A stretch of DNA of 20,000 bases, taken from the IMG/VR virus record IMGVR_UViG_3300025889_000100; one strand, 5' to 3'. Of the stretch, positions 434 through 18,987 are shown in pieces. Position 1 is the stretch's first letter, and every line of letters begins with the position of its first letter. The position numbers were made by a program, and so were the translations under genes. Under the pieces are notes generated by a model. It was given only the letters and a program-made list of their open reading frames with translations, had not been told where the DNA came from and searched no databases. The stretch comes from an uncultured virus (IMG/VR IMGVR_UViG_3300025889_000100). Taxonomy: Duplodnaviria; Heunggongvirae; Uroviricota; Caudoviricetes.

Positions 434-582
434 TACTGTCCATCTTCCTTGTTTCTCATCAATCTTCTCATATAATCTTCAACGCTGTCATCGGTGATAT
501 TTGTTCCACCAAATGCAGCGAAAAAGAGCAATAAGAGAACTGTTAAGAAAACAAGAAGAAAGAACCAATCCCAGCCTTCCAT
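433..582 (-). CDS. 49-aa single-pass membrane protein
   Basis: Manual translation MEGWDWFFLLVFLTVLLLLFFAAFGGTNITDDSVEDYMRRLMRNKEDGQ*. TAATG overlaps at both ends. Confidence 0.75.
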   Translation of the reverse strand: MEGWDWFFLLVFLTVLLLLFFAAFGGTNITDDSVEDYMRRLMRNKEDGQ

Positions 583-1175
583 TACCATTTCACCTCTAAT
601 TCTACAAACTTTTCTTTATCGACAGAAAATGCTTTGACAATCCCATTGTCTTGACCATATTTCCAAAGGTCATACACTAGTTGAGTATCTTTCATACAAT
701 ACTCAACGACTTCATCATATTGACCAGCCTTCCATAACTTAGGAGCATCAGCACTATCCATGAGTTTAAAATCATTCATTGTGCATTTAACTAAGTTACT
801 TAATGGGAATCTTTCACCATGTTCTTTGGTTAAGATTCTGCTAGTATCAATATATCTTTTATCTTCTAGATATTGTTTAATACAATAAATATCCATAGAG
901 TCTTTCAGAATAGGCAAATCAAATGCGGCAATATTATGTCCTAATAATACTCCACCTTTCTGAAAATGCTCATCTAAATCATACTTTAGTTCTCTTAAAG
1001 ACTTTACAATATGACCAGACTTAGCAAAAGAATCAACGGGTTCATCAACATAAACAGTTCCAGTATTTCCATCCCATGTAGCAACGGTTGATACTTGAAA
1101 CATATGCGTATTACCAAAACCGCCTATGTCATACGACATATTTTTTGTTTCGATATCAAGAGCCATTACTGACAT
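582..1175 (-). CDS. DEDD(y) RNase H-fold 3'-5' exonuclease (DnaQ/YprB-like)
   Basis: ExoI ALDIET, ExoII GHNIAAFDLP and ExoIII YCMKD motifs. Confidence 0.85.
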   Translation of the reverse strand: MSVMALDIETKNMSYDIGGFGNTHMFQVSTVATWDGNTGTVYVDEPVDSFAKSGHIVKSLRELKYDLDEHFQKGGVLLGHNIAAFDLPILKDSMDIYCIKQYLEDKRYIDTSRILTKEHGERFPLSNLVKCTMNDFKLMDSADAPKLWKAGQYDEVVEYCMKDTQLVYDLWKYGQDNGIVKAFSVDKEKFVELEVKW

Positions 1176-1405: not shown

Positions 1406-2904
1406 TTCTTTTCCTCTCCTTTAAATTTAATAAATACTGCTCGGCCTTGTTTTTCTATTTCAAATAGGTTTTCAATTGATTTGAAGTAGTTGTAAACACT
1501 AGCCTGACTTTTCTTGCTTTCTCTTTTCACTTCTGATAAGAAATCTTTTTTACTTATGAATCCGTCTTCATCTTTTTCCATAGCAACATAAACAGTCTTA
1601 AATGTGCTTAACATTGATTTTTCAGTAACCGAAGTTCGACGGACACGGAGGCTACGTTCAAGCCATGCGACAAGGGTTATATAACACTTTTCTGCAATCT
1701 GTCCTGCTTGTTCGACGTTTTTACCTGTAACAATGAATCTCTTATCTTTATCTCTAATGCTTCTTGCTTGAGATATAGAACATAAAACTGCCATCTTTTT
1801 AAGATTTTGATTCAGACGAGTAATAAATACATCAAGAATTTCCTTTACTTCCTTTCTTGAATCTGAAATATAGTTATCCATTTTATCATATTCATAGAGT
1901 AATCTATCTCTTGCTTCTTGAGTATAAGTCATTGTTTTCAACGGGTCGCAACCTACTTCAACAAATCTCTCTTTTACAAGATTGTAGATTTCAAATATAT
2001 TATTTGCAAATCTTTCTGTTGGTGGTTCTTCTCTTTCAGTTATTACACCAAACTGACTAATTAATTCTCTTCTAATTTTATCTTGAACGAAAGAAGGAAC
2101 ATCATGAACATACATAACCATTCTTGGTAATACACCTGTTGTAGCCATAATCTCTTGTAGGTTTCTAGGAGGATATGTCATAGCAACTACTGTTCTTTGA
2201 CAATAGCAATTAACTACTCCACCCTCTTTTAATTGTTTATTAATTACCCAAGATTCTCCAGTTAAAGAATTCATTAAGGTATTCAAATATACAATAGAAT
2301 TACCTTTGTGTTGGCTTTCCTTGAAGATACCCGAATACTCAAATTCATCCCAGTGGGCTATTCCGTTTCCTTCCAATGCCCCTGCAACTCTTTCATAATA
2401 AACATCTCCTATTTGTTCTCCATGTAATTCTGCTTCTTCATCATTTCTAATGATTTTCTTATCCATATAACCAATTAATGCAGCATCAGTATAATCAACT
2501 AAAGAGAAAACATCAAAGAAAGTATCTGCTATTTCTCCAGCATCTCTTAATTGTGGAGGATGTGTTCCTGTTTCGTTAATCTTTTTAAATACTGACTTAG
2601 TAATTGGGCCTACAAATCTCCAAAGTGTTGATTTACCTGTACCTGAAGTTTGAATCCAACACAAATGTATTCTAATATCATCAGTTAAATCACCGTCAGG
2701 TATATGCACAAAGTCTTTACATACTGCACTTAATAAATTATAATACATTAATAGTGCAGGAGTATCGTTATGCTTTGAGTAACTAGTTGCAGTATCAGCC
2801 CATGCTTTCATAATAGCAGGTAGTTCCGTTTTACTTACTGCGCCCATATCTTCTGTAAATTGCGCCCAGTAATCTTCTTCATTCATTTCATATTCATCTA
2901 TCAT
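1402..2904 (-). CDS. AAA+ ATPase, probable replicative helicase (MCM-related/DUF3987-like) with C-terminal winged helix
   Basis: Walker A TSGTGKST, Walker B AHWDEFE, putative Arg finger GVLPRM, C-terminal wHTH-like segment; located in a replication cluster near the primase. Confidence 0.7.
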   Translation of the reverse strand: MIDEYEMNEEDYWAQFTEDMGAVSKTELPAIMKAWADTATSYSKHNDTPALLMYYNLLSAVCKDFVHIPDGDLTDDIRIHLCWIQTSGTGKSTLWRFVGPITKSVFKKINETGTHPPQLRDAGEIADTFFDVFSLVDYTDAALIGYMDKKIIRNDEEAELHGEQIGDVYYERVAGALEGNGIAHWDEFEYSGIFKESQHKGNSIVYLNTLMNSLTGESWVINKQLKEGGVVNCYCQRTVVAMTYPPRNLQEIMATTGVLPRMVMYVHDVPSFVQDKIRRELISQFGVITEREEPPTERFANNIFEIYNLVKERFVEVGCDPLKTMTYTQEARDRLLYEYDKMDNYISDSRKEVKEILDVFITRLNQNLKKMAVLCSISQARSIRDKDKRFIVTGKNVEQAGQIAEKCYITLVAWLERSLRVRRTSVTEKSMLSTFKTVYVAMEKDEDGFISKKDFLSEVKRESKKSQASVYNYFKSIENLFEIEKQGRAVFIKFKGEEKK

Positions 2905-3596
2905 AGTTTCACCTTATCTTCTGAATTTAATACGTTAAGTATTCTGTCTGCTAATACTTTTCCAAACCCATCTAGTTTTTGTATGTCAAAACTAGTTTGT
3001 TCTCCTATTTCCATAACAGACCCAAAAGTATCAATTAATACCTTTGCTTTTTTATAGGATACGCCTTTGATGCTAGTTAAAATATCAAGTCTTAAATCGT
3101 CGGTGCTTATTCTCTTAAATACTTGTGGTCTTATAACTTCTCTTTCTATTGGTTGCATTTTACAAATCGCTGTAATTATCAATGACGCTTCTTCTTCGCT
3201 CTTTACCCAAAAGGGTTTTATATCCGTGTCTAATACAATTCTACCTATTGCTCCTAGAAATTTATTTGATAACATAATCTTTCTAGAAGCGATAGGTAAT
3301 TTGCTTTTACTGTGTTCAATAATATTGTATATTCCTTCTGATAAATCTCCATAGATAATTACAACATTGTTCTTGTAATGTCTATCCATATTATCTAATT
3401 GAGTCCATAATCTTTTAGACATTACAGACCCAATAAAATCTACAACAGACTTTGCTTCAAAGCATACATCAGCAAAAACATAATCTCCTATTTCTAGCCA
3501 TTTCTTTTCTGTTTGTATATTTAGAATTCTCGCTCGTTCTTCAACGAGTTTGACAATTTTAGAACCTTCTTTTTCTCTACTATCAATTATTAACAT
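2901..3596 (-). CDS. ERCC4/XPF-family structure-specific endonuclease with C-terminal HhH motifs
   Basis: IIDSRE, GDY and EAKSVVDF (ERKxxxD variant) motifs; IKGVSYKKA and LDGFGKVLA helix-hairpin-helix pair. Confidence 0.9.
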   Translation of the reverse strand: MLIIDSREKEGSKIVKLVEERARILNIQTEKKWLEIGDYVFADVCFEAKSVVDFIGSVMSKRLWTQLDNMDRHYKNNVVIIYGDLSEGIYNIIEHSKSKLPIASRKIMLSNKFLGAIGRIVLDTDIKPFWVKSEEEASLIITAICKMQPIEREVIRPQVFKRISTDDLRLDILTSIKGVSYKKAKVLIDTFGSVMEIGEQTSFDIQKLDGFGKVLADRILNVLNSEDKVKL

Positions 3597-5061: not shown

Positions 5062-5967
5062 TCACACCCATGAATCTTCTTGTGCCGCATCACAAATACC
5101 AAAGTAAGAGCAATGAGCGCAAGTCTTGTAAAAGAACTTTGTAGGAAATGTATTTCTTTCATAGTGATGAATCAACTTAGCGATATTATTCATTACAGAA
5201 GTCATAGACCTTTTCTTTCTCTCTTCTGCATAAATGTAATTTGATGCTGGATAGTACCAACCCCAATGTGTTACTTTATCATTTGGGTCAAGACCATTCT
5301 TAATCATAACTTCATCGGTTGCATTCTCGATAAGTAATTCATAAAACGCCATTTCTTTTCTCATTGAAGTTGTTTTCCAATCTTTCCAAAGACCTGTTTT
5401 ATATTCAAAAGGAACAAGACCCCCATTCTCTCTAAAAATTCGGTCAATGATTCCTTGAATGTGAATTACATAATCTCTTTGAAGAGGAAACTTTGGATTG
5501 ATGTTTGCAGGGATTGTAATTTCAGCATCAAACTTTCCTTCATTACAAACTGGCAAGTATTCTTGTATCTTATCTTCTGACTTCGCTTCAATAAATCGTT
5601 GTGCTTCGAGCGATGCCACTGTTACTGAAATATCATAGTATTCATCAACAGGCATTAGTCCAGTGCAGTATTCCAAAATCTCACTATTGTTCATCTTTGA
5701 AGCCTTCTCAATATCAAAGTTATTGAAAAAGTCTTCTCTATGATTGTGTAATATTGTTCCTTTAAGCATAGCCTCCGTTTGGTCTTGAGGCATTCGCTGG
5801 ATATAAGAAAAGTCATATTTCTTCGGACACCAATCGAAAGAACCCAAAGAAGACTTCGTTATTTTCAAGATTGGTTGTGAAGGGTCATCATAATTTTCAG
5901 GCTTCCATTGGTAAGTGAACTCCCTCATCGAGGAAATCACCGCATTATATTTTTCATCGTTATTCAT
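5062..5967 (-). CDS. Cas4/AddB-like PD-(D/E)XK exonuclease with four-Cys Fe-S staple
   Basis: N-terminal WCPKKY, GTILH, GIIDRI and EYKTG motifs; C-terminal CAHCSYFGIC. Confidence 0.85.
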   Translation of the reverse strand: MNNDEKYNAVISSMREFTYQWKPENYDDPSQPILKITKSSLGSFDWCPKKYDFSYIQRMPQDQTEAMLKGTILHNHREDFFNNFDIEKASKMNNSEILEYCTGLMPVDEYYDISVTVASLEAQRFIEAKSEDKIQEYLPVCNEGKFDAEITIPANINPKFPLQRDYVIHIQGIIDRIFRENGGLVPFEYKTGLWKDWKTTSMRKEMAFYELLIENATDEVMIKNGLDPNDKVTHWGWYYPASNYIYAEERKKRSMTSVMNNIAKLIHHYERNTFPTKFFYKTCAHCSYFGICDAAQEDSWV

Positions 5968-5968
5968 T

Positions 5969-6856
5969 TTACCACCATTCGTCTAATTTCATTTGTAGTT
6001 TTCCTGTCCGTATTGAAGAAATGTCCCATTCCATTGCCTTGTAAATTGGCTTCGCTTTGTTTATCACTTCTTCTGCGTAGTGTTTGTAGTTGGGAATGTA
6101 ATCATTAAAATCTTCATACACTGTTCCCGAAACAAAATCTACTTGTCTTTTTTCTTTTGTGAGAGGGTGGGTGTAGGTATCATTAACACCCTGTACTTTC
6201 ATAAACAAGTATGAATCATCAAAAGTTTTGTCTTCTTTTTCCCAAGCATACAGAACCCCTGCGATACCTGAACCGATTGTGGGTTTCTTGTATTTAGTTG
6301 TTAAGAAGAATTTGGTTTCAGTTCCGCATTTATCACACCATTTAATCTTAAGGCATTCAGTTAAGTGGTGTTGCTTTTTGCATTCTGGACATTTAACCTC
6401 AAATCTTTCTTTACGCAAACGACTTCTCTTGATAATCTCTTTGTTTTCGATTTCACCATTGATAACATCATTGTATTTTTCATGTAAATACTTGTTGATT
6501 TCTTTCATATCTTTCTGTTCCACCCACATTCTCAATACATTTGTTTGTACTTCTTTTGCGAGTTTAGTTTCACTAACACGCTTTGCAGTAAAACCAGTCA
6601 TTGTGAATTTAGGTTCATCAAGCCAAACTCCATCCTCCCAAGATACTAAACCTGCGTTTCTATTCTTTGTTGTGCCAACACCTAATGCCGAAAAATACTT
6701 TTCAAATTCAAGAACAACAGGATGTTGTTCAAGATTTAATACATTAGGAAAGTGTTCACGAACTGAATCTTCAATCTCTTTGATTGCTGATTCAGCCTTT
6801 TCAATAGATTCAATCTGAACATAGATTGAATCCGTATGTCCATAAACTACTTTCAT
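5969..6856 (-). CDS. polB: family B DNA polymerase, C-terminal subunit (motif C, rest of palm, thumb); start revised to ATG at 6856
   Basis: Starts MKVVYGHTDSIYV after a GGTGA RBS at 6861-6865. Contains LEFEKYF, KNRNAG and GFTAKR; ends in PIP-like QMKLDEWW. Confidence 0.9.
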   Translation of the reverse strand: MKVVYGHTDSIYVQIESIEKAESAIKEIEDSVREHFPNVLNLEQHPVVLEFEKYFSALGVGTTKNRNAGLVSWEDGVWLDEPKFTMTGFTAKRVSETKLAKEVQTNVLRMWVEQKDMKEINKYLHEKYNDVINGEIENKEIIKRSRLRKERFEVKCPECKKQHHLTECLKIKWCDKCGTETKFFLTTKYKKPTIGSGIAGVLYAWEKEDKTFDDSYLFMKVQGVNDTYTHPLTKEKRQVDFVSGTVYEDFNDYIPNYKHYAEEVINKAKPIYKAMEWDISSIRTGKLQMKLDEWW

Positions 6857-6860
6857 AGTA

Positions 6861-7055
6861 TCACCATGCGTTTTCAAAATAGAGTTTGCCATCAGTATAT
6901 TGCATCAATTCCTGCTTGATTGTTTTAATGTCCTTTAATAAATCTGCAAACGTAGTATTCTCTTCATAGAGAATACCCAACTCGTTTTCAAGTCTCTTTA
7001 CTGTTTGCTTTAGATTTGCTACTTCTGCTTTTAATTCTTTAATTTCTTTACTCAT
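6861..7055 (-). CDS. small coiled-coil protein
   Basis: Heptad-like IKELKAEVANLKQTVKRLENEL; GGTGA RBS upstream; ATGA overlap with the previous ORF. Confidence 0.75.
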   Translation of the reverse strand: MSKEIKELKAEVANLKQTVKRLENELGILYEENTTFADLLKDIKTIKQELMQYTDGKLYFENAW

Positions 7056-7557: not shown

Positions 7558-9228
7558 TTATTCCATCTCCTTTGCTTTAAATGCGGCTAAACGAATTGCT
7601 TCTCTTGCACTAGCAGTAATACTAGCGGCTAAATCTACATCAGCCCAACCAAATCCTTGAAAGGCAACAATGCCATAGAACGATGCCATTAATCTTTTTA
7701 CTGCCATTTGATTGTTATACCACTTGACATATTCATTTTTGTTATCATTCTCTCTTGCTTCTTTCATAAGACGCTTATATTCATTTCTTAATTCTTTTAA
7801 TTCAAGAACTGCTCTCGGTAAAAGGCCGAGATTATCTGTCTTATAATAGAGCATTTGTTCTCTATCAGTAATACTGAAATCTCTCGGTGTTAAAATATTT
7901 ACACCAAATTCTGTTGGTTCTTCTGACTTAGTTTCCCATGAAATGTTTCTAGCAATCATCATACTAGGATAAAGACCAGCAAAATCAAAAGCAGCAACAT
8001 TAAGATGTAATCCATTTGTTTCTTCACTTAATGGGTCATAAATCATAGCACCGTCATATTCTTGACGCTTCTCTACTTTTTCACCTGTTGGTGCAATCCA
8101 TGTAGCATTACGCATAAAATAAATTGAACCCATATGACTAGCATAAAAACAAGCATCGAATGGTGCAATCAATAATCTTTGTAGTGCGATAATTGCCTCA
8201 CTACAATAATTTAATTCATCCAATTCTACCATTAGTTCAACATCAACTAAAGCATACTTCAAATATGTATCAGTATCTTCTAACCATGCTCTACGATAAA
8301 ACTCGTTAGGGTCTGGAAACTTTTCTGAAACTAGTTTCTTTCGATTAAGAACTAATTCAGATACATAATCTAAACTCAATGAAGGTAAAGTTCCTCTTTG
8401 TGAATCATTCCATTGACGTTCAAAGGCCATGTCTAAATTGAGGGTAATGCGCCCCTTGATGGGCTGTTCGATACTTCCGAACCCCTTTTCACCATAAAGG
8501 AATTTGTAGCCGTTCTTCGTTGAAACAACGCCCTTTACTTGGCTTACAGGAGATATTACTAAGGGATTCAGACCCAAAGCACACGCTCGCTCAAGTAGTT
8601 TCGGAACATCAGCAAAATTACCAAACCATGAAATAAGCATATCTGGATTTTTGTCCTGAATTGTTTGCATAAAATTTTCAAGCATATCTTTTTCTGAATC
8701 ATACTGAAATAACGATACTTCATGATTATTATAATTGCTATATATTTCTTCATTGATATGAGTATCAGGAAACCATACCCATTGGTAATAAGTTTCATCA
8801 TAATTATCATACATTACAATAGTAGTAATACAATCGTGATATTGTCCACCTTGTTGCCATTCCATATCCCAATACCATTTACGCATTTTATATTCAGGCA
8901 AAGAACCTAAAGTATCAACTGCATATCTAAATGATAAAGGAACATCTGCTTCATATGTCTGAAGAAAACTCTTCTTTGCTATTTTAATATCTTTGGCAGA
9001 TTCAACATATACACGAATAAGTTTTGTTCCTTCAAGATTATACCAATTTCCTTCTTCATAAACAAAATCTCTTTCAATAAACTTTGAAGGTTTGTATGAA
9101 GTTGGCCGCTTTGAATTTACTGAGATGTAGAAATACGGTATAAAATTATCAACCTTTTGTATTAATTCTTCACCGTTTCTCCATGAAGTGTAAATTGTTT
9201 TTCCATTATCTAATGCACTAATTATCAT
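7558..9228 (-). CDS. polB: family B DNA polymerase, N-terminal subunit (N-terminal domain, exonuclease, motifs A and B)
   Basis: Archaeal-type PYFY and YEADVP...RY; ExoI WDME, ExoIII YALVD; motif A DFAGLYPS; motif B QMAVKRLMASFYG; ends ITASAREAIRLAAFKAKEME. Confidence 0.92.
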   Translation of the reverse strand: MIISALDNGKTIYTSWRNGEELIQKVDNFIPYFYISVNSKRPTSYKPSKFIERDFVYEEGNWYNLEGTKLIRVYVESAKDIKIAKKSFLQTYEADVPLSFRYAVDTLGSLPEYKMRKWYWDMEWQQGGQYHDCITTIVMYDNYDETYYQWVWFPDTHINEEIYSNYNNHEVSLFQYDSEKDMLENFMQTIQDKNPDMLISWFGNFADVPKLLERACALGLNPLVISPVSQVKGVVSTKNGYKFLYGEKGFGSIEQPIKGRITLNLDMAFERQWNDSQRGTLPSLSLDYVSELVLNRKKLVSEKFPDPNEFYRRAWLEDTDTYLKYALVDVELMVELDELNYCSEAIIALQRLLIAPFDACFYASHMGSIYFMRNATWIAPTGEKVEKRQEYDGAMIYDPLSEETNGLHLNVAAFDFAGLYPSMMIARNISWETKSEEPTEFGVNILTPRDFSITDREQMLYYKTDNLGLLPRAVLELKELRNEYKRLMKEARENDNKNEYVKWYNNQMAVKRLMASFYGIVAFQGFGWADVDLAASITASAREAIRLAAFKAKEME

Positions 9229-12398: not shown

Positions 12399-12409
12399 CT
12401 TTATATTAA
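12399..12409 (-). promoter_or_regulatory. possible archaeal TATA box upstream of the SSB-like gene
   Basis: Minus strand TTAATATAAAG lies about 35 nt before the ATG at 12365, at one of few intergenic gaps. Weak evidence in an AT-rich genome. Confidence 0.25.
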
Positions 12410-13312
12410 TTGCCCAACAAACCATGATACTAATACTCTTGGTGTCATAGTTGTTGAACGATATTCGCTTTCTCCTAATGTTCTTAGATATTTAAATTTA
12501 ACATTACTATCTAACCCATTCATGTTTATTACTGCATCGTGTAATCCAATACATATTTCTGAAATATCACGACCTGCATAAATCATATCATGGAGTATAG
12601 AAAGAACTGTTGTATCTTTATTAGTTATCAAATTAATTATTTTTACATATTCTTCTAATGAAATTTCACTTTGCTTTTTGAGTGAAATATTTGAGTATTT
12701 AGCGGCCTGTATTTCGGTTATCGCTCTCCTTAAGTCACCGTTTAGAGTGGCTATAAAGGAACTCAATTCATTATCATCAAATCCAGTTATTTCTTCACGT
12801 TGAAGAATACCTTTCACAACTTCCAATATTCGGTCATTGGATAAAGGTTTAAAATGATAATTAGCACATCTACTTTGGATAGGGTGAATGATTTTGTTTT
12901 TATTATTACAAGTAATAATAAAACGAATGTTATTCGCATAACGTTCCATGATTCTCTTCAAAGCATTCTGAGCATCATTTGTCATTCCTTCCATTTCATC
13001 TAGTAATAGAATCTTAAACGGAACATCACCGATAGTTCCTGTCTGTGCTATTTGTTTGATAAGGGTTCTAACAGTTTCAAGTTTCCTATCATCAGATGCA
13101 TTAATCTCAAAAAAGTTATCTGCCGCATTTTCTCCTAAAATAGAATAAGCCAGTGCTAATCCTGCACCTGTTTTACCTGTCCCTGCTCTCCCATAAAAGA
13201 GAAGATTTGGCATATCTTTTTCTTCAATCCATAATTCAGCATCCATTGTAAAATGTTCTTGTCCTACAATGTCGCCTATTCCTTTTGGTCTATATTTTTC
13301 TGTCCATAACAT
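12401..13312 (-). CDS. rfcS: replication factor C small subunit (clamp loader)
   Basis: LWTEKYRP, DIVGQ, Walker A GRAGTGKT, EINASD, Walker B LLDE, AQNALKRIME and SRC motifs. Confidence 0.95.
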   Translation of the reverse strand: MLWTEKYRPKGIGDIVGQEHFTMDAELWIEEKDMPNLLFYGRAGTGKTGAGLALAYSILGENAADNFFEINASDDRKLETVRTLIKQIAQTGTIGDVPFKILLLDEMEGMTNDAQNALKRIMERYANNIRFIITCNNKNKIIHPIQSRCANYHFKPLSNDRILEVVKGILQREEITGFDDNELSSFIATLNGDLRRAITEIQAAKYSNISLKKQSEISLEEYVKIINLITNKDTTVLSILHDMIYAGRDISEICIGLHDAVINMNGLDSNVKFKYLRTLGESEYRSTTMTPRVLVSWFVGQLI

Positions 13313-13314
13313 TT

Positions 13315-14175
13315 TTATTCACCATTAAAATAATCCGTTAAACTTCTTACCTCTATTCTGGTAGGAGTTCTTTTTGTTCTTCTTTCTTTTTCTTTTAAAC
13401 CCAAAAGTCTAGAATCACCATTGTTAAGTTTGCTTCTTACATACTTAGCAAAGCCTTCATCATTTAGTAATTGTTTTAGTACATTTACATTAGAATTACT
13501 AATGCCTAGTTTTCTTGCTAGGTATGGTTTCTTAGAATAAGATTTACGCTGAGGCATTTTTAATCTACCATAGTTTAGACCATCATGCCTATAGGCAAGC
13601 ATTTCATAAAAATACCTTTGACTCCATCTTCTCTTTACCACACTATCAATAAAAACTAATTTATTAGGATGCACGTTTTCACACAACCATGAAAGAATCT
13701 GAACATCGGGAGGTTTATTGTAAACTAATAATTCAGCCATTAAATCCCTATCAGTTTGCTTAAGATACTCCCTTACAAGAGAATAAGTATCTCTCTTGTA
13801 AAGAACTGGTTCTTCGCTTCTAGGGGCTTTATTCTTAATGGATTCCCTTAAATAATTTTTACCTCCTGCTCTTTTGATTTGACACAGGTTTTTGATTTCT
13901 TTTGGAACATCCTTTTCATTAATAGAGGTCAGAACAATCTGTCCTTTGTAATTTCTAATAACGAACAACACTTCTTCTTTCTTTGCTTTATGATGAATGT
14001 CTTCAATAATAATTCCATCATCAATTGGAATAGAGAATACATCTTTGATTCCCATTTCATTCGCATAAACAATAACAGGATTATTTACAAATGTCTTTGC
14101 TTTTGTTGATTTACCTGTACCTGTTTTTCCTGTTAGAAGTATTGGTCTGTTTCTTTTCATATTTGTTAATCCCAT
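13315..14175 (-). CDS. divergent RFC large subunit-like protein
   Basis: RPILLTGKTGTGKST, degenerate Walker B IIIEDIH, C-terminal PIP-like RSLTDYF; adjacent to rfcS. Confidence 0.65.
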   Translation of the reverse strand: MGLTNMKRNRPILLTGKTGTGKSTKAKTFVNNPVIVYANEMGIKDVFSIPIDDGIIIEDIHHKAKKEEVLFVIRNYKGQIVLTSINEKDVPKEIKNLCQIKRAGGKNYLRESIKNKAPRSEEPVLYKRDTYSLVREYLKQTDRDLMAELLVYNKPPDVQILSWLCENVHPNKLVFIDSVVKRRWSQRYFYEMLAYRHDGLNYGRLKMPQRKSYSKKPYLARKLGISNSNVNVLKQLLNDEGFAKYVRSKLNNGDSRLLGLKEKERRTKRTPTRIEVRSLTDYFNGE

Positions 14176-14573
14176 TATACTACACCTTTTATTTCAAATA
14201 ATCTTTCCATACCCTCTAGGGTTAAATGTTTCTTTTCTGAAATTATATCTACGCATTCTAGAAACGAATTCCATTCTCCCTTTGAATGAGGAAGATTAGG
14301 ATTCACTATTGTCTTTAGAAGATATAAGTTTTTGATTCCACCAATTCTCAGAATAGGCTTGCGCCTTGTAGAATGTTCTTCTGAGCGATATGTAGTTTCA
14401 ATACCGTGTTGTAATAGGCTACGTTGAACTGCTAAAAGAAATTTCGCATCGGCTCGAATATTTAATCTTAAACGTACTCTATATCCAATAGAGGAAGCAT
14501 CAGAAGAAACAATGTTTAAATCCATTTTTGTTGATGAAAGAAGAATACCACATAACATATCTTTACTAAACAT
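14175..14573 (-). CDS. LAGLIDADG homing-endonuclease-fold protein, degenerate active site
   Basis: GYRVRLRLNI strand and the K...F.....I...KHLTLEGM..L..IK tail typical of LAGLIDADG endonucleases. The namesake helix reads LCGILLSST, with no acidic residue. Confidence 0.7.
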   Translation of the reverse strand: MFSKDMLCGILLSSTKMDLNIVSSDASSIGYRVRLRLNIRADAKFLLAVQRSLLQHGIETTYRSEEHSTRRKPILRIGGIKNLYLLKTIVNPNLPHSKGEWNSFLECVDIISEKKHLTLEGMERLFEIKGVV

Positions 14574-15025
14574 TAAAGTTCCTCCACATACTTTGAATTA
14601 TCGGGCCAATAACCATTAGGGTCTTGGCTAGGATGCATTTCCCACCAATACATATGTGCGGGAGTAATTGTTTTATGACCAAGTTCTTCTGCATTTTCTT
14701 CTGCGGCAACAACTAAATCTTCAATTGCTCCTTCCATCCATACCTTTAGAAAGGCAATAAAATCTCTTGAAATAGGCATATCAGTATATTCTTTAACCAT
14801 AGCCCTTAGTGAAATTTTACCACTACGATTAAACTTAGGTAAAGAGGGTTTCTCAGGAATAATAAACTCTCCTTCTTCATTGAAGAATGGAACTAATTCA
14901 ACTTTCATTTTTCTTGGCCGACCTTGTGGATTTACAACATCCTTTAGATGAGCCATTCCTTCTTCTATGCGAATTACTGAATAAGTAATTCTATCGAGAA
15001 CAGTTAAATCTCCTTTCTTAATCAT
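14573..15025 (-). CDS. histone-fold protein with an extra N-terminal beta-rich domain
   Basis: Residues ~70-125 (LRAMVKEYTDMPISRDFIAFLKVWMEGAIEDLVVAAEENAEELGHKTITPAHM) follow the histone-fold pattern, including the A...A...G(R/H)KT(I/V) loop. Confidence 0.75.
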   Translation of the reverse strand: MIKKGDLTVLDRITYSVIRIEEGMAHLKDVVNPQGRPRKMKVELVPFFNEEGEFIIPEKPSLPKFNRSGKISLRAMVKEYTDMPISRDFIAFLKVWMEGAIEDLVVAAEENAEELGHKTITPAHMYWWEMHPSQDPNGYWPDNSKYVEEL

Positions 15026-15453
15026 TCTTCTTCCTCCTGTATTCCTTGCATTAGAACCGATTTTACAACTTCATAGTCTGCTTCTTTCTCAAGAACCTGA
15101 ATAGCCAGTTTGAATACTTGGCGTAGTCTATACATTTCATTAGTTGTTTGGGTCAATTTAGGAGTATTCCAAACTCTCTTTTGTTCTTCAAAGTCTAAAA
15201 AATCATCAATGTCGCTATCTTGAATTTTCAATTCCTTAAGAATCTTAACGTTAGTTTGAGTAAGAATTGCTTCTTCTCCATCCTCAATACGAATGTCATA
15301 TAGTCTTTTGTGTAAAAGAAAAAGTTCTCGCTGAATAGACCTAATCTTTCCATAATGAGTACCTATGAATCTCCCTACTCCTTTTCTAGACAATTTAGAA
15401 ATTTCATATATTTGCCCTTTATCATTTACTACATATCCATTTACATAAGTCAT
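15022..15453 (-). CDS. hypothetical protein
   Basis: 143-aa ORF coupled to both neighbours by 4-nt overlaps. Confidence 0.75.
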   Translation of the reverse strand: MTYVNGYVVNDKGQIYEISKLSRKGVGRFIGTHYGKIRSIQRELFLLHKRLYDIRIEDGEEAILTQTNVKILKELKIQDSDIDDFLDFEEQKRVWNTPKLTQTTNEMYRLRQVFKLAIQVLEKEADYEVVKSVLMQGIQEEEE

Positions 15454-16967
15454 TGTAATTCCTCCATTCTTTTTATCGTGTCAATATCATTGACGAATTT
15501 ATCCTCTCGAATCCTTTTGCATCTTGGAAACCTGAGAGAGAGATTTCCTTTAGCATCTTTACTTACCAAATCAGCACGTATTTCTAATACTGTGCGAGGT
15601 AAGAAATGATAAGTTCCGTCTTTGAAAGACTCGACATTCTTTCTTAGATTACTAGTAAGATTAATTAATTGTGTGTCTGTGAAGCCACTTCCGCACCATC
15701 CGACAGAAGTAAAACCATTATCTGATTTTACTGCAATTTCAAATGTAGCGAATACATTTGAGTTTTTCCCGTCGCCATACTTTGCTGAGATAATAACTAC
15801 ATCTAAATCAATTAGAGGTGGTTTATACTTAGCCCAGTATTTTGACCTTTTACCAGATTCATAAGGTGCATTTGCATCCTTTACAATAATACCTTCAAAA
15901 CCTTCGTTGATTGCTCTATTATAGAAAGCCATTACATCAGTCGTTGAACGCTCGGCTTGGTCAGGTAAAGTATTCATTTCTATCAAACGCTGAGAATAAG
16001 GTAAGTTCATTATTGTTACACCTTTATACATTAGACAATCAAATATAACCCACTTTACTGGGCATTTAGAAATCGCTTCAGTCTTATCTTTTGAATGTAC
16101 TCTTGTTGCAAGTTTAGAATGGGGCGCAGGTAATCCGTTTTCTACTGGATAAATTTCCCCATCAAGAATAAGATTATTAACCTCATAGTTTCGGACTATT
16201 TCTGCGACATCAGAAAACTGTTCTGTTACAATTTTTCCAGTGCGATTGAAAATAATCACGCTATTATCTTTCTTGTGAATTTGATAGCGATTACCGTCAT
16301 ACTTGAAATCCACAATTTTATTTGAAGGCCACTTATTCATAGGTATTGCTTTTGCGAGCATAGGTGAAACAAATGCGCCATGAGTTAAATTCATTGGTGG
16401 TTCTTCATTCATTTCATAGTATGAAATAACATCAGTCATACTATTAAAGTTACAGTGCTTTTTAACATCTGCAATCTTTTTACCATAGTGCTTTGCTAGT
16501 ACTTTCTTAAGTGTAGTGGATTGAACCCCGTTTCTTGGTGTTCTTAACCAATAACGAATAAACCACTTTACTTCAGTATCAGACATATTTAATAGATGTT
16601 CTTCAATCAAAGCAAATGAATTAGAAGTCATATTAGAACAGTCTAACTCAAGAAGAGTCTTGAAAGTTTTAATTGTGTATTTATTATCTTTCTGAGAATT
16701 ATCGAACCAATACATTGCTTCCCCTAAGTCTCCATAAGTATCATATTCTACATCAATTTCATCTTCAAACACATCGTAGATTTTAGCCATCCATTTCTTA
16801 GCCTTAGCCAAACCAATATTGTTTGGTGTTAATTCAAGAGACAAAATACTGAATAGTATTTGTTTATCTTCAAAACTCTCCATTTCCTTTGAAAGAAATG
16901 TTACCGCTTGAGTTGGAGTCATAGACTCGCTCGCTTCTAGTAATCTCGTTAATTTCTTCATTGTCAT
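15450..16967 (-). CDS. lig: ATP-dependent DNA ligase
   Basis: Motif I KYDGNR, LDGE, IFDCL, EGIIVK, WAKYK, DLDVVI, CGSGFTD and SLRFPR, plus an N-terminal DNA-binding domain (GDLGE). Confidence 0.96.
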   Translation of the reverse strand: MTMKKLTRLLEASESMTPTQAVTFLSKEMESFEDKQILFSILSLELTPNNIGLAKAKKWMAKIYDVFEDEIDVEYDTYGDLGEAMYWFDNSQKDNKYTIKTFKTLLELDCSNMTSNSFALIEEHLLNMSDTEVKWFIRYWLRTPRNGVQSTTLKKVLAKHYGKKIADVKKHCNFNSMTDVISYYEMNEEPPMNLTHGAFVSPMLAKAIPMNKWPSNKIVDFKYDGNRYQIHKKDNSVIIFNRTGKIVTEQFSDVAEIVRNYEVNNLILDGEIYPVENGLPAPHSKLATRVHSKDKTEAISKCPVKWVIFDCLMYKGVTIMNLPYSQRLIEMNTLPDQAERSTTDVMAFYNRAINEGFEGIIVKDANAPYESGKRSKYWAKYKPPLIDLDVVIISAKYGDGKNSNVFATFEIAVKSDNGFTSVGWCGSGFTDTQLINLTSNLRKNVESFKDGTYHFLPRTVLEIRADLVSKDAKGNLSLRFPRCKRIREDKFVNDIDTIKRMEELQ

Positions 16968-17431: not shown

Positions 17432-17721
17432 TCTTCATCATCTCCGTATATTTTCATTTGTTCCTTTAGTATTTCATCTAGTAAAACACTTCTAATTCTA
17501 TCGTAGCATTTCTTTACATCTTCACGTTTCATTGTAGCCCCACGAAGTCCTTCACCTGCGGGAATATTTTTTCTAATATCAGCATATTGAGCAAATAAAT
17601 CAACCAATTCACTTGCTGAAAATTTAAACTCGTTAAATGCTCCTTCAGAATGCTTTCTTAATGCGTTTGCTCTCCGCAACGATTTTTTAACTTGGACATC
17701 ACTCATCCTCTTTATTCTCAT
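17428..17721 (-). CDS. hypothetical basic protein
   Basis: Coupled ORF with a GGAGG RBS. Confidence 0.7.
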   Translation of the reverse strand: MRIKRMSDVQVKKSLRRANALRKHSEGAFNEFKFSASELVDLFAQYADIRKNIPAGEGLRGATMKREDVKKCYDRIRSVLLDEILKEQMKIYGDDEE

Positions 17722-17920
17722 TTAATTTCCTCCTTAGTAAGTTTAAGACTTTATTAGCCTCATCAATATTCATTCTTATTCCTTTTCCTGTTGGTTTGTC
17801 TTTTTTGAACCAGCGAATATCAACTACTTCAACATTCCAATATGTTCCTGTTTGAATTACAATTTCTTCATCAGAATTTCTAACTACTGAACCTATTCTC
17901 TCAAGACTCAATTCATCCAC
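17699..17920 (-). CDS. PC4/Sub1-like ssDNA-binding protein
   Basis: VDIRWF...PTGKGI matches the PC4 signature (DIR.....PT.KGI). Confidence 0.85.
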   Translation of the reverse strand: MDELSLERIGSVVRNSDEEIVIQTGTYWNVEVVDIRWFKKDKPTGKGIRMNIDEANKVLNLLRRKLNENKEDE

Positions 17921-18558: not shown

Positions 18559-18987
18559 TTATTCCTCCACTATTTTTCTACCTAATATAGTTTTTACTTT
18601 TGAAGAAAGTTTATCGTTGTTCATACTTTGCAATAATAGTCTTATTTCATCATCTTCTACTGAATCAATAGTCTTTGAAATATCATATTGATTAGATTCA
18701 ACGTGATTAATAAAATCAGAAGGTAATTCAATTTGATGTTCTTCAACGTAATGAGAAAGACCTGAAGGCCAAAGATATACACCATCAACCATTTCAGAAC
18801 TACCGTTTATTTCTCCACATATCCTACAACGAGAAACTCCCCTATAAGAATAAACAAGAACACCATTAGATAAATAGTTCAACATTTTTTCAATGTCATA
18901 ATTGGCTTTATTAGAAATAGGCATAGGTAAATCAGGGTATGTATTGTTTATTGTATTCCAAAATCCTACTCTTTTAAGTTTTGGCAT
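18559..18987 (-). CDS. conserved hypothetical protein with probable Zn site
   Basis: YRGVSRCRICG...NGS...WPSGLSHYVEEH contains CxxC and HxxxH motifs. Confidence 0.75.
   Translation of the reverse strand: MPKLKRVGFWNTINNTYPDLPMPISNKANYDIEKMLNYLSNGVLVYSYRGVSRCRICGEINGSSEMVDGVYLWPSGLSHYVEEHQIELPSDFINHVESNQYDISKTIDSVEDDEIRLLLQSMNNDKLSSKVKTILGRKIVEE

Follow-up and report, generated by a model that had tools for sequence, protein, structure and literature searches.

The locus and its genes

The window analyzed here is a stretch of 20,000 nucleotides of DNA from an uncultured virus and spans positions 61896-81895 in a virus record of 93,195 bp that is rated complete (IMGVR_UViG_3300025889_000100). 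At positions 14573..15025, on the minus strand, the window carries a gene for a 150-amino acid (aa) protein in which a KOW-like domain is joined to a histone fold. The open reading frame (ORF; 14573-15025, minus) translates without an internal stop, ends with the stop codon at 14573-14575, and has homologs in related loci; it is a real and conserved gene, and what a sequence-only reading of this DNA had noticed there stands. The motifs quoted in that reading are all present, namely, PIS at residues 84-86, GHKTITPAH at residues 116-124, the N-terminal sequence IKKGDLTVLDRITYSVIRIEEGMAHLKDV, and a tryptophan-rich tail, and the assignment of residues 70-125 to positions 14651-14818 is correct. 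The gene lies inside a long run of genes on the same strand with overlapping start and stop codons: its ATG shares 4 nt with the stop codon of the upstream gene, which encodes a 143-aa protein, and its stop codon shares 1 nt with the ATG of the next gene, which encodes a 132-aa protein. The genome contains one copy of the histone-fold gene, and a search for another histone fold there gave none.

The 143-aa gene (15022..15453, minus) is present in some lineages only. Preceding it is an ATP-dependent DNA ligase gene (15450..16967, minus; Pfam DNA_ligase_A_M, 1.1e-35), the upstream neighbor that is conserved by synteny, and in loci without the 143-aa gene, the ligase directly abuts the histone-fold gene. 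On the other side, the 132-aa protein (14175..14573, minus) is a single-domain LAGLIDADG fold without the catalytic acid. When a profile of this protein was compared with PDB, it matched I-PnoMI (E=6.5e-15), and among 13 diverse sequences of the 132-aa protein, none has Asp or Glu at the acidic positions of the LAGLIDADG motif, which agrees with the earlier description of a dead LAGLIDADG gene next to the histone-fold gene. Because its position is fixed across the related group, the 132-aa protein is a domesticated fold rather than a mobile homing endonuclease.

The next gene (13315..14175, minus) encodes a 286-aa protein that has its P-loop at the N-terminus, shows weak matches to P-loop families of Pfam, and ends with a conserved L-x-E/D-Y-F motif, which, we presume, resembles a PCNA-binding box. 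A profile of this protein had no match in PDB, and its AlphaFold2 model is poor (pLDDT 64); the top Foldseek matches of this model are clamp-loader subunits of T4 and RFC (E from 4e-6 to 1e-4), so the 286-aa protein is probably a second, large-like clamp-loader subunit. It is followed by a clamp-loader ATPase that resembles the RFC small subunit (RFC-S; 12401..13312, minus; Pfam DNA_pol3_delta2, 7.3e-14; AAA, 7.3e-13; Rep_fac_C, 4.8e-5).

A magrovirus-like genome with a fixed order of replication genes

The genome, with a GC content of 33-34%, encodes a split PolB, RFC, the ATP-dependent ligase, a RadA-like AAA_24 ATPase, and a chaperonin; a PCNA-like gene, with no match to a Pfam family, is named from its position and synteny only. 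Between the two parts of PolB (7558-9228 and 5969-6892, minus), a gap of about 660 nt contains three small ORFs. The N-terminal part comprises the exonuclease domain and positions 25-193 of the Pfam polymerase family, and the C-terminal part covers positions 221-360. Split DNA polymerase genes occur in group B1 magroviruses, according to the accessible text of Philosof et al. (PMC5434244). Further genes for replication or repair at 2901-3596, 5062-5967, and 582-1175 (minus) encode a nuclease of the ERCC4/XPF type that carries helix-hairpin-helix motifs, a Cas4/Dna2-like nuclease of the PD-(D/E)XK class, and an exonuclease resembling RNase H. A 73-aa protein (17699-17920, minus) matches PC4 (transcriptional coactivator p15, ssDNA-binding) at 24.6 bits (E=1.8e-5), slightly short of the cut-off of 25. 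The gene for a 142-aa protein (18559-18987, minus), flanked by the chaperonin gene and by small genes that precede the ligase, gives a weak match to DUF7919 that does not reach the cut-off (E=4.5e-5).

Magroviruses are tailed viruses assigned to marine Poseidoniales archaea, as described by Philosof et al. in 2017 (PMC5434244, accessible text) and in the ICTV profile of Aoguangviridae (PMC10768690). The features that distinguish the Magrovirales, that is, a genome of about 90-100 kb, low GC content, a near-complete archaeal-type replisome, and a chaperonin, are all found here, and the genome fits the description of a magrovirus-like virus, an assignment drawn from gene content and published descriptions rather than from a tree. 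Scans of genome contigs with the family alignment and with the viral chaperonin found no relative. The word 'histone' is not mentioned in the main text of Philosof et al. or in the Aoguangviridae profile (PMC10768690); a literature search found no paper on a histone in magroviruses, and none of the matches listed in a search combining Poseidoniales, histone, and virus describes the window protein.

In all 35 IMG/VR loci that were found with the protein, the gene order is ligase, histone-fold gene, dead LAGLIDADG gene, P-loop protein gene, and RFC-S, followed, as far as the contigs reach, by a 425-aa gene, an 89-aa gene, AAA_24, and the PCNA-like gene. Two genes are optional in this order: the 143-aa gene, which appears in some loci, and an acidic ORF of about 120 aa that follows the histone-fold gene in many. 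We also surveyed the neighborhoods of the 286-aa gene in the best 80 of its 281 relatives, counting the 74 loci with more than 1500 nt upstream. The 132-aa LAGLIDADG gene was present in all 74 and the histone-fold gene in 72; in the remaining two loci, the acidic 120-aa ORF alone occupies that slot, so that the histone-fold gene is dispensable in some lineages. Examples of the acidic ORF, which the window lacks, are L013:2384-2755, L017:5164-5547, L030:2287-2649, and L081:4246-4611. In magrovirus-like viruses, the histone-fold gene is thus a near-universal component of the replication module, present in a single copy.

A histone fold detected at the profile level

The histone fold (residues 70-126; 14648..14818, minus) consists of helix 1 (73-78), loop L1, helix 2 (87-114), and loop L2 with the GHKTI motif; within the same interval, L1 contains the invariant S86, and a very short helix 3 is located near P122-H124. 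With a single sequence, the similarity is marginal: Pfam family PF00808 (CBFD_NFYB_HMF) is matched with E=0.077 and 13.7 bits against a cut-off of 21.4, and the best match in PDB is HmvA with E=0.13. The E-value of the PDB search falls to 0.014 with a 6-sequence profile and, with a profile of 23 homologs, to 7.6e-9 for HmvA (PDB 8bdk; 29% identity), which is followed by H2B, H2A, NC2-beta, NF-YB, HMfA, and HMfB. This last search yielded 372 PDB sequences at E<=10, and the best 60 of these are histone-fold proteins throughout, except for one coiled-coil chimera. Of six individual family members, three match PF00808 (best E 0.0056) and one matches DUF1931, which we take to be another histone-fold family. 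The likeness to histone folds is therefore beyond chance, at the profile level only.

The AlphaFold2 model obtained with the 23-sequence alignment (pLDDT 92.2, pTM 0.55) shows the helix-loop-long helix-loop-helix topology, with helices at 73-78 and 87-114 (28 residues) and a rudimentary helix 3, where DSSP assigns only three helical residues (122-124). Foldseek aligns the model with 8bdk_A with probability 1.00 and an rmsd of 1.2 over 55 columns; HMfA (chain length 68) aligns over 61 residues with an rmsd of 2.0, and TAFs, CENPs, and Dpb4-Dpb3 are also among the structural matches. For the whole model, Foldseek found no match at E<=0.001, and neither did a comparison of the modelled protein with the viral structures of BFVD. 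Helix 2 of the window protein contains 8 acidic and 2 basic residues (net charge -6). Profile and model together bear out the earlier proposal that the virus encodes a histone fold in which helix 3 is very short and helix 2 acidic.

A helical bundle of the AAA+ lid type, or a chance resemblance, would undermine this assignment, and the sequence-only reading had named the former as an alternative. We rejected an AAA+ lid identity of the helical part, given that no such lid appears in either the sequence or the structure match lists, including the best 60 of the 372 PDB matches. The profile E-value of 7.6e-9, the matches of individual members to PF00808 and DUF1931, the alignment with HMfA, and the independent discovery of the family by Liu et al. 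with histone HMMs all argue in the same direction, which makes a lid or a coincidence exceedingly improbable.

HmvA, annotated as a 'non-canonical histone from archaea', is the best match of the histone-fold part in both sequence and structure and, like the window protein, has an extension after the fold. It differs in the lack of an N-terminal barrel and in the retention of the GRKT loop and the helix-3 Asp, and the two tails are unrelated in sequence. We take HmvA to be one of the C-terminally extended histones of Methanococcales, such as MJ1647. According to the accessible text of PMC11390915, MJ1647 bridges DNA, and the Methanococcales histones achieve this by means of a C-terminal tetramerisation domain. 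The same text (Schwab et al. 2024) describes alpha3-truncated histones, in which helix 3 comprises 3-4 residues and helix 2 is shorter by 4-5. The window protein resembles these prokaryotic and 'phage' histones, as portrayed there, in a helix 3 of about three residues and in the loss of the RxTxxxD motif; however, its helix 2, with 28 residues, is not shortened by 4-5, and it has an N-terminal barrel where they have a C-terminal tetramerisation helix.

Loss of the nucleosomal histone signatures

The canonical RVS and RKT-x4-D motifs had been described as altered in the window protein, and the 23 homologs show that this is a property of the family. Position 84, the site of the L1 arginine, is occupied by Ser, Gln, Pro, Thr, or another residue and in 0/23 by Arg; position 117, where the 'RKT' of L2 would have its arginine, has His or Asp in most sequences; and position 124, the Asp of the clamp, is His in 22/23 and never Asp. 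S86, which follows the lost L1 arginine site, is kept in 23/23. Basic residues are conserved at positions 87 (Arg or Lys in 17/23) and 78 (Lys or Arg in 22/23), position 119 is Arg, Lys, or Thr in 22/23, and Lys/Arg is retained at 118-119. The stretch from L2 to helix 3, R-I-x-P-x-H, aligns with TRIIPRH of H2A, with the His common to both.

The net charge of the histone-fold domain is -4 in the window protein and ranges from -4 to +5 across the 23 homologs; the pI of the whole window protein is 5.3. Thus the L1 arginine, the RKT with its Arg-Asp clamp, and the basic character of the protein are all missing. Under the definitions of the Arg-Asp clamp and the nucleosomal histone signatures in the accessible text of PMC13260811, the family protein is therefore not a nucleosomal histone, and the loss of the canonical DNA signatures makes a nucleosome-forming role appear unlikely from the sequences.

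These features bear on two further readings. The first is a viral chromatin protein, which would compact the genome of the virus or package it, either inside the cell or within the capsid: the fold itself is that of a histone, HmvA, its nearest relative of solved structure, carries the label of a DNA-binding protein, and, if our placement of HmvA in the same class is right, the DNA bridging reported for MJ1647 in the accessible text of PMC11390915 points the same way. A domain that is not basic, the loss of the signature DNA-contact residues, the location of the gene in the replication rather than a structural module, and its lack in 2 of the 74 related loci render such a function distinctly improbable. 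The second is an antagonist of the host histone that acts by forming heterodimers defective in DNA binding. The retention of the handshake helices along with changed DNA-contact residues would suit such a dominant-negative partner, but in Poseidoniales, the presumed host order, the sole histone gene encodes an acidic quadruplet that may not bind DNA (accessible text of PMC13260811). According to that text, the order has only these covalently linked quadruplets, which leaves little room for an outside partner, and we consider this reading highly improbable. Among the three functions raised in the sequence-only reading, namely, organization of viral DNA, poisoning of the host histone, and a replisome accessory, the poisoning looks least likely.

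The barrel, the linker, and the tail

The N-terminal domain (residues 1-58; 14852..15025, minus) is modelled by AlphaFold2 as an SH3/KOW-like beta-barrel with strands at 7-10, 13-21, 24-29, and 38-41 and a conserved G35-R36 in the loop that reads GRPRK in the window protein. Its top structural matches are Spt5 KOW domains, one of them from an archaeal Spt5 with 26% identity; less than 1 Z unit separates these from Tudor, chromo, and other SH3-like barrels, so the KOW assignment is not specific. The Pfam KOW family (PF00467) was matched by none of 6 members at E<=10, a search in which the HMMER filters may drop very weak matches. Given the rival barrels and the lack of a Pfam KOW match, the evidence reaches 'SH3-like, KOW-like' and no further, and we keep this label. 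Unlike Spt5 and NusG, the window protein has no NGN domain and no KOW match at the sequence level, and Tudor and chromo barrels match its barrel equally.

In the GRPRK loop (14921-14935, in the region of residues 31-35), Gly35 is present in 21/23 homologs and Arg36 in 18/23; the G-R-P-R-K sequence, in our view, resembles an AT-hook core. We rejected as chance a local likeness of residues 30-55 to the methyl-CpG-binding domain of MeCP2 (E 0.3-1), since it did not gain with profiles and the model places the segment in the barrel. Likewise, a PIP-box-like sequence, KVELVPFF at residues 41-48, was discarded because Leu44 occurs in 6/23 only and the segment lies within the barrel.

The barrel is connected to helix 1 by a Pro/Lys/Arg-rich basic linker (residues 59-69; 14819..14851, minus), where pLDDT dips to 78. 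The net charge of the linker is +3 in the window protein and 0 to +9 across the 23 homologs, and it is basic in most of them. The C-terminal tail (residues 127-150; 14576..14647, minus) is aromatic and acidic, with the conserved residues W127, G138, Y139, W140, P141, and Y146 and a net charge from -8 to 0 across the 23 homologs. It is modelled with pLDDT 90-94 in the AlphaFold2 monomer and closes with a short helix (141-149); judging from this model, the tail could fold back onto the histone fold and block pairing. The model and the fold matches thus agree with the SH3/KOW-like N-terminal barrel, the Pro-rich linker, and the Trp-rich tail proposed earlier.

The barrel raises the question of a transcription factor, that is, a protein that would control viral gene expression by means of an Spt5-KOW-like barrel and an NC2/NF-Y-like fold, with promoters or the RNA polymerase of the host as its target. 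The match to Spt5 KOW, with 26% identity to the archaeal protein, is compatible with this explanation, as are the matches of the profile to NC2-beta and NF-YB and the nearby PC4-like gene (17699-17920). Set against these are the Tudor, chromo, and SH3-like barrels within 1 Z unit, the lack of a Pfam KOW match, and the neighborhood, which consists of replication genes with no adjoining transcription factor gene, so that we regard a role in transcription as rather unlikely.

A diverged branch of the VKHFP family

The family is small. Among 1.84 billion representatives, searched exhaustively with phmmer, 38 family proteins with lengths of 55-182 aa reached E<=0.001, and an intact frame is kept in 108 ORFs of related loci that show 33-100% identity to the window protein. 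A tblastn search of annotated phage records gave no match to the window protein, and PHROGs contain no family that matches it. In two proteins, P0036 and P0043 (103-106 aa), the fold and the tail are present and the barrel is replaced by an unrelated short N-terminus; these may be barrel-less variants or cases of mis-called starts.

In the text accessible to us, Liu et al. (2025, hLife, PMC13681535) sorted viral histone-fold proteins mined from IMG/VR into six named clusters. One of these, the viral KOW histone-fold proteins (VKHFP), is defined there by a histone fold joined via a long loop to a KOW-like barrel, the architecture that the AlphaFold2 model and the fold matches show for the window protein. 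The VKHFP alignment in the supplement of Liu et al. comprises 17 sequences, two rows of which are letter-identical to ORFs from our related loci, L090 (identical to L091) and L093; moreover, three VKHFP-bearing contigs in their metadata are among these loci. The IMG/VR relatives with this domain architecture thus include published VKHFP proteins, and the gene product is a member of the VKHFP family. With the VKHFP it shares the barrel, the long loop, and the histone fold, a length of about 150 aa, and the same genomic slot; it differs in its distance, being 35-39% identical to L090, L091, and L093 (BLASTP E about 2e-30), and by these identities represents a new member in a diverged branch. The suggestion that the window holds the best candidate for an undescribed system accordingly fails, given that the same family was published in 2025. 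The main text of Liu et al., as distinct from the supplement, which may hold such information, gives no host, genomic context, or function for VKHFP, and among the matches listed in a literature search, no other paper mentions VKHFP. The ordered replication-module context of the VKHFP gene is therefore a new addition that is apparently unreported.

Possible roles in viral replication

The location in the replication module favors a replisome-accessory or DNA-organizing reading over virion chromatin. Our preferred explanation, to which we assign a rough probability of 0.4 and which is accordingly tentative, is that the protein assists viral replication as a DNA-binding dimer, serving as an accessory or DNA-architectural factor distinct from a nucleosome. 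We infer that the protein would pair through the histone-fold handshake, yielding a dimer that would bind double-stranded DNA, or bend it, through its L1-L2 sites (Ser86, Arg/Lys87, and Lys/Arg118-119) and the two basic linkers. Barrels and acidic tails, in turn, would tether the dimer to nucleic acid or to replication partners. DNA binding is suggested by the retention of Ser, Lys, and Arg in L1-L2 and by the linker, basic in most homologs; counting against it are the near-neutral or acidic fold and the loss of the L1 arginine and the Arg-Asp clamp. The case for a role in replication, which comes from synteny with replication genes, is circumstantial.

The overall role would be akin to that of Dpb3-Dpb4, a replisome-attached pair of histone-fold proteins that serves DNA polymerase epsilon of eukaryotes as an accessory. 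NC2-beta, NF-YB, and Dpb4-Dpb3 are among the matches of the family; however, H2A, NC2, NF-Y, and Dpb3-Dpb4 are obligate two-chain heterodimers, whereas this genome has one histone-fold gene. Alternatively, the protein might be an adaptor that connects proteins without binding DNA, in which the fold would serve solely as a pairing module, as in TAFs and CENP-X, and the barrel and acidic tail would recruit components of replication, for example, PCNA, the ligase, the clamp loader, or the dead-LAGLIDADG protein. The Ser and the Lys/Arg residues kept in L1 and L2 and the basic linker that precedes helix 1 speak against such an adaptor, which we consider unlikely if far from implausible.

Returning to the DNA-binding accessory, in a more specific version, the histone-fold protein and the dead LAGLIDADG protein would together shape DNA in the magrovirus replisome, as one architectural unit coupled to replication. 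Here, the histone-fold dimer would act as a DNA grip associated with the polymerase or the clamp loader, like Dpb3-Dpb4, and a LAGLIDADG dimer would provide sequence-specific DNA recognition, for example, at the origin. We view this combination as quite doubtful. If true, this would extend replisome-attached histone-fold factors beyond eukaryotes for the first time.

Implications

The advance made here is incremental: the architecture was already known, and a role is proposed only. In the accessible text of Liu et al., the description of VKHFP covers the fold only, and the present analysis adds a defined biological setting, the replication module of viruses whose assigned host group ranks among the most abundant archaea of the ocean. 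The fixed order of the gene with those of the ligase, the dead homing-endonuclease fold, and the clamp loader leads to a testable hypothesis on the handling of viral DNA in an archaeal virus equipped with its own replisome and argues against equating every viral histone fold with chromatin.
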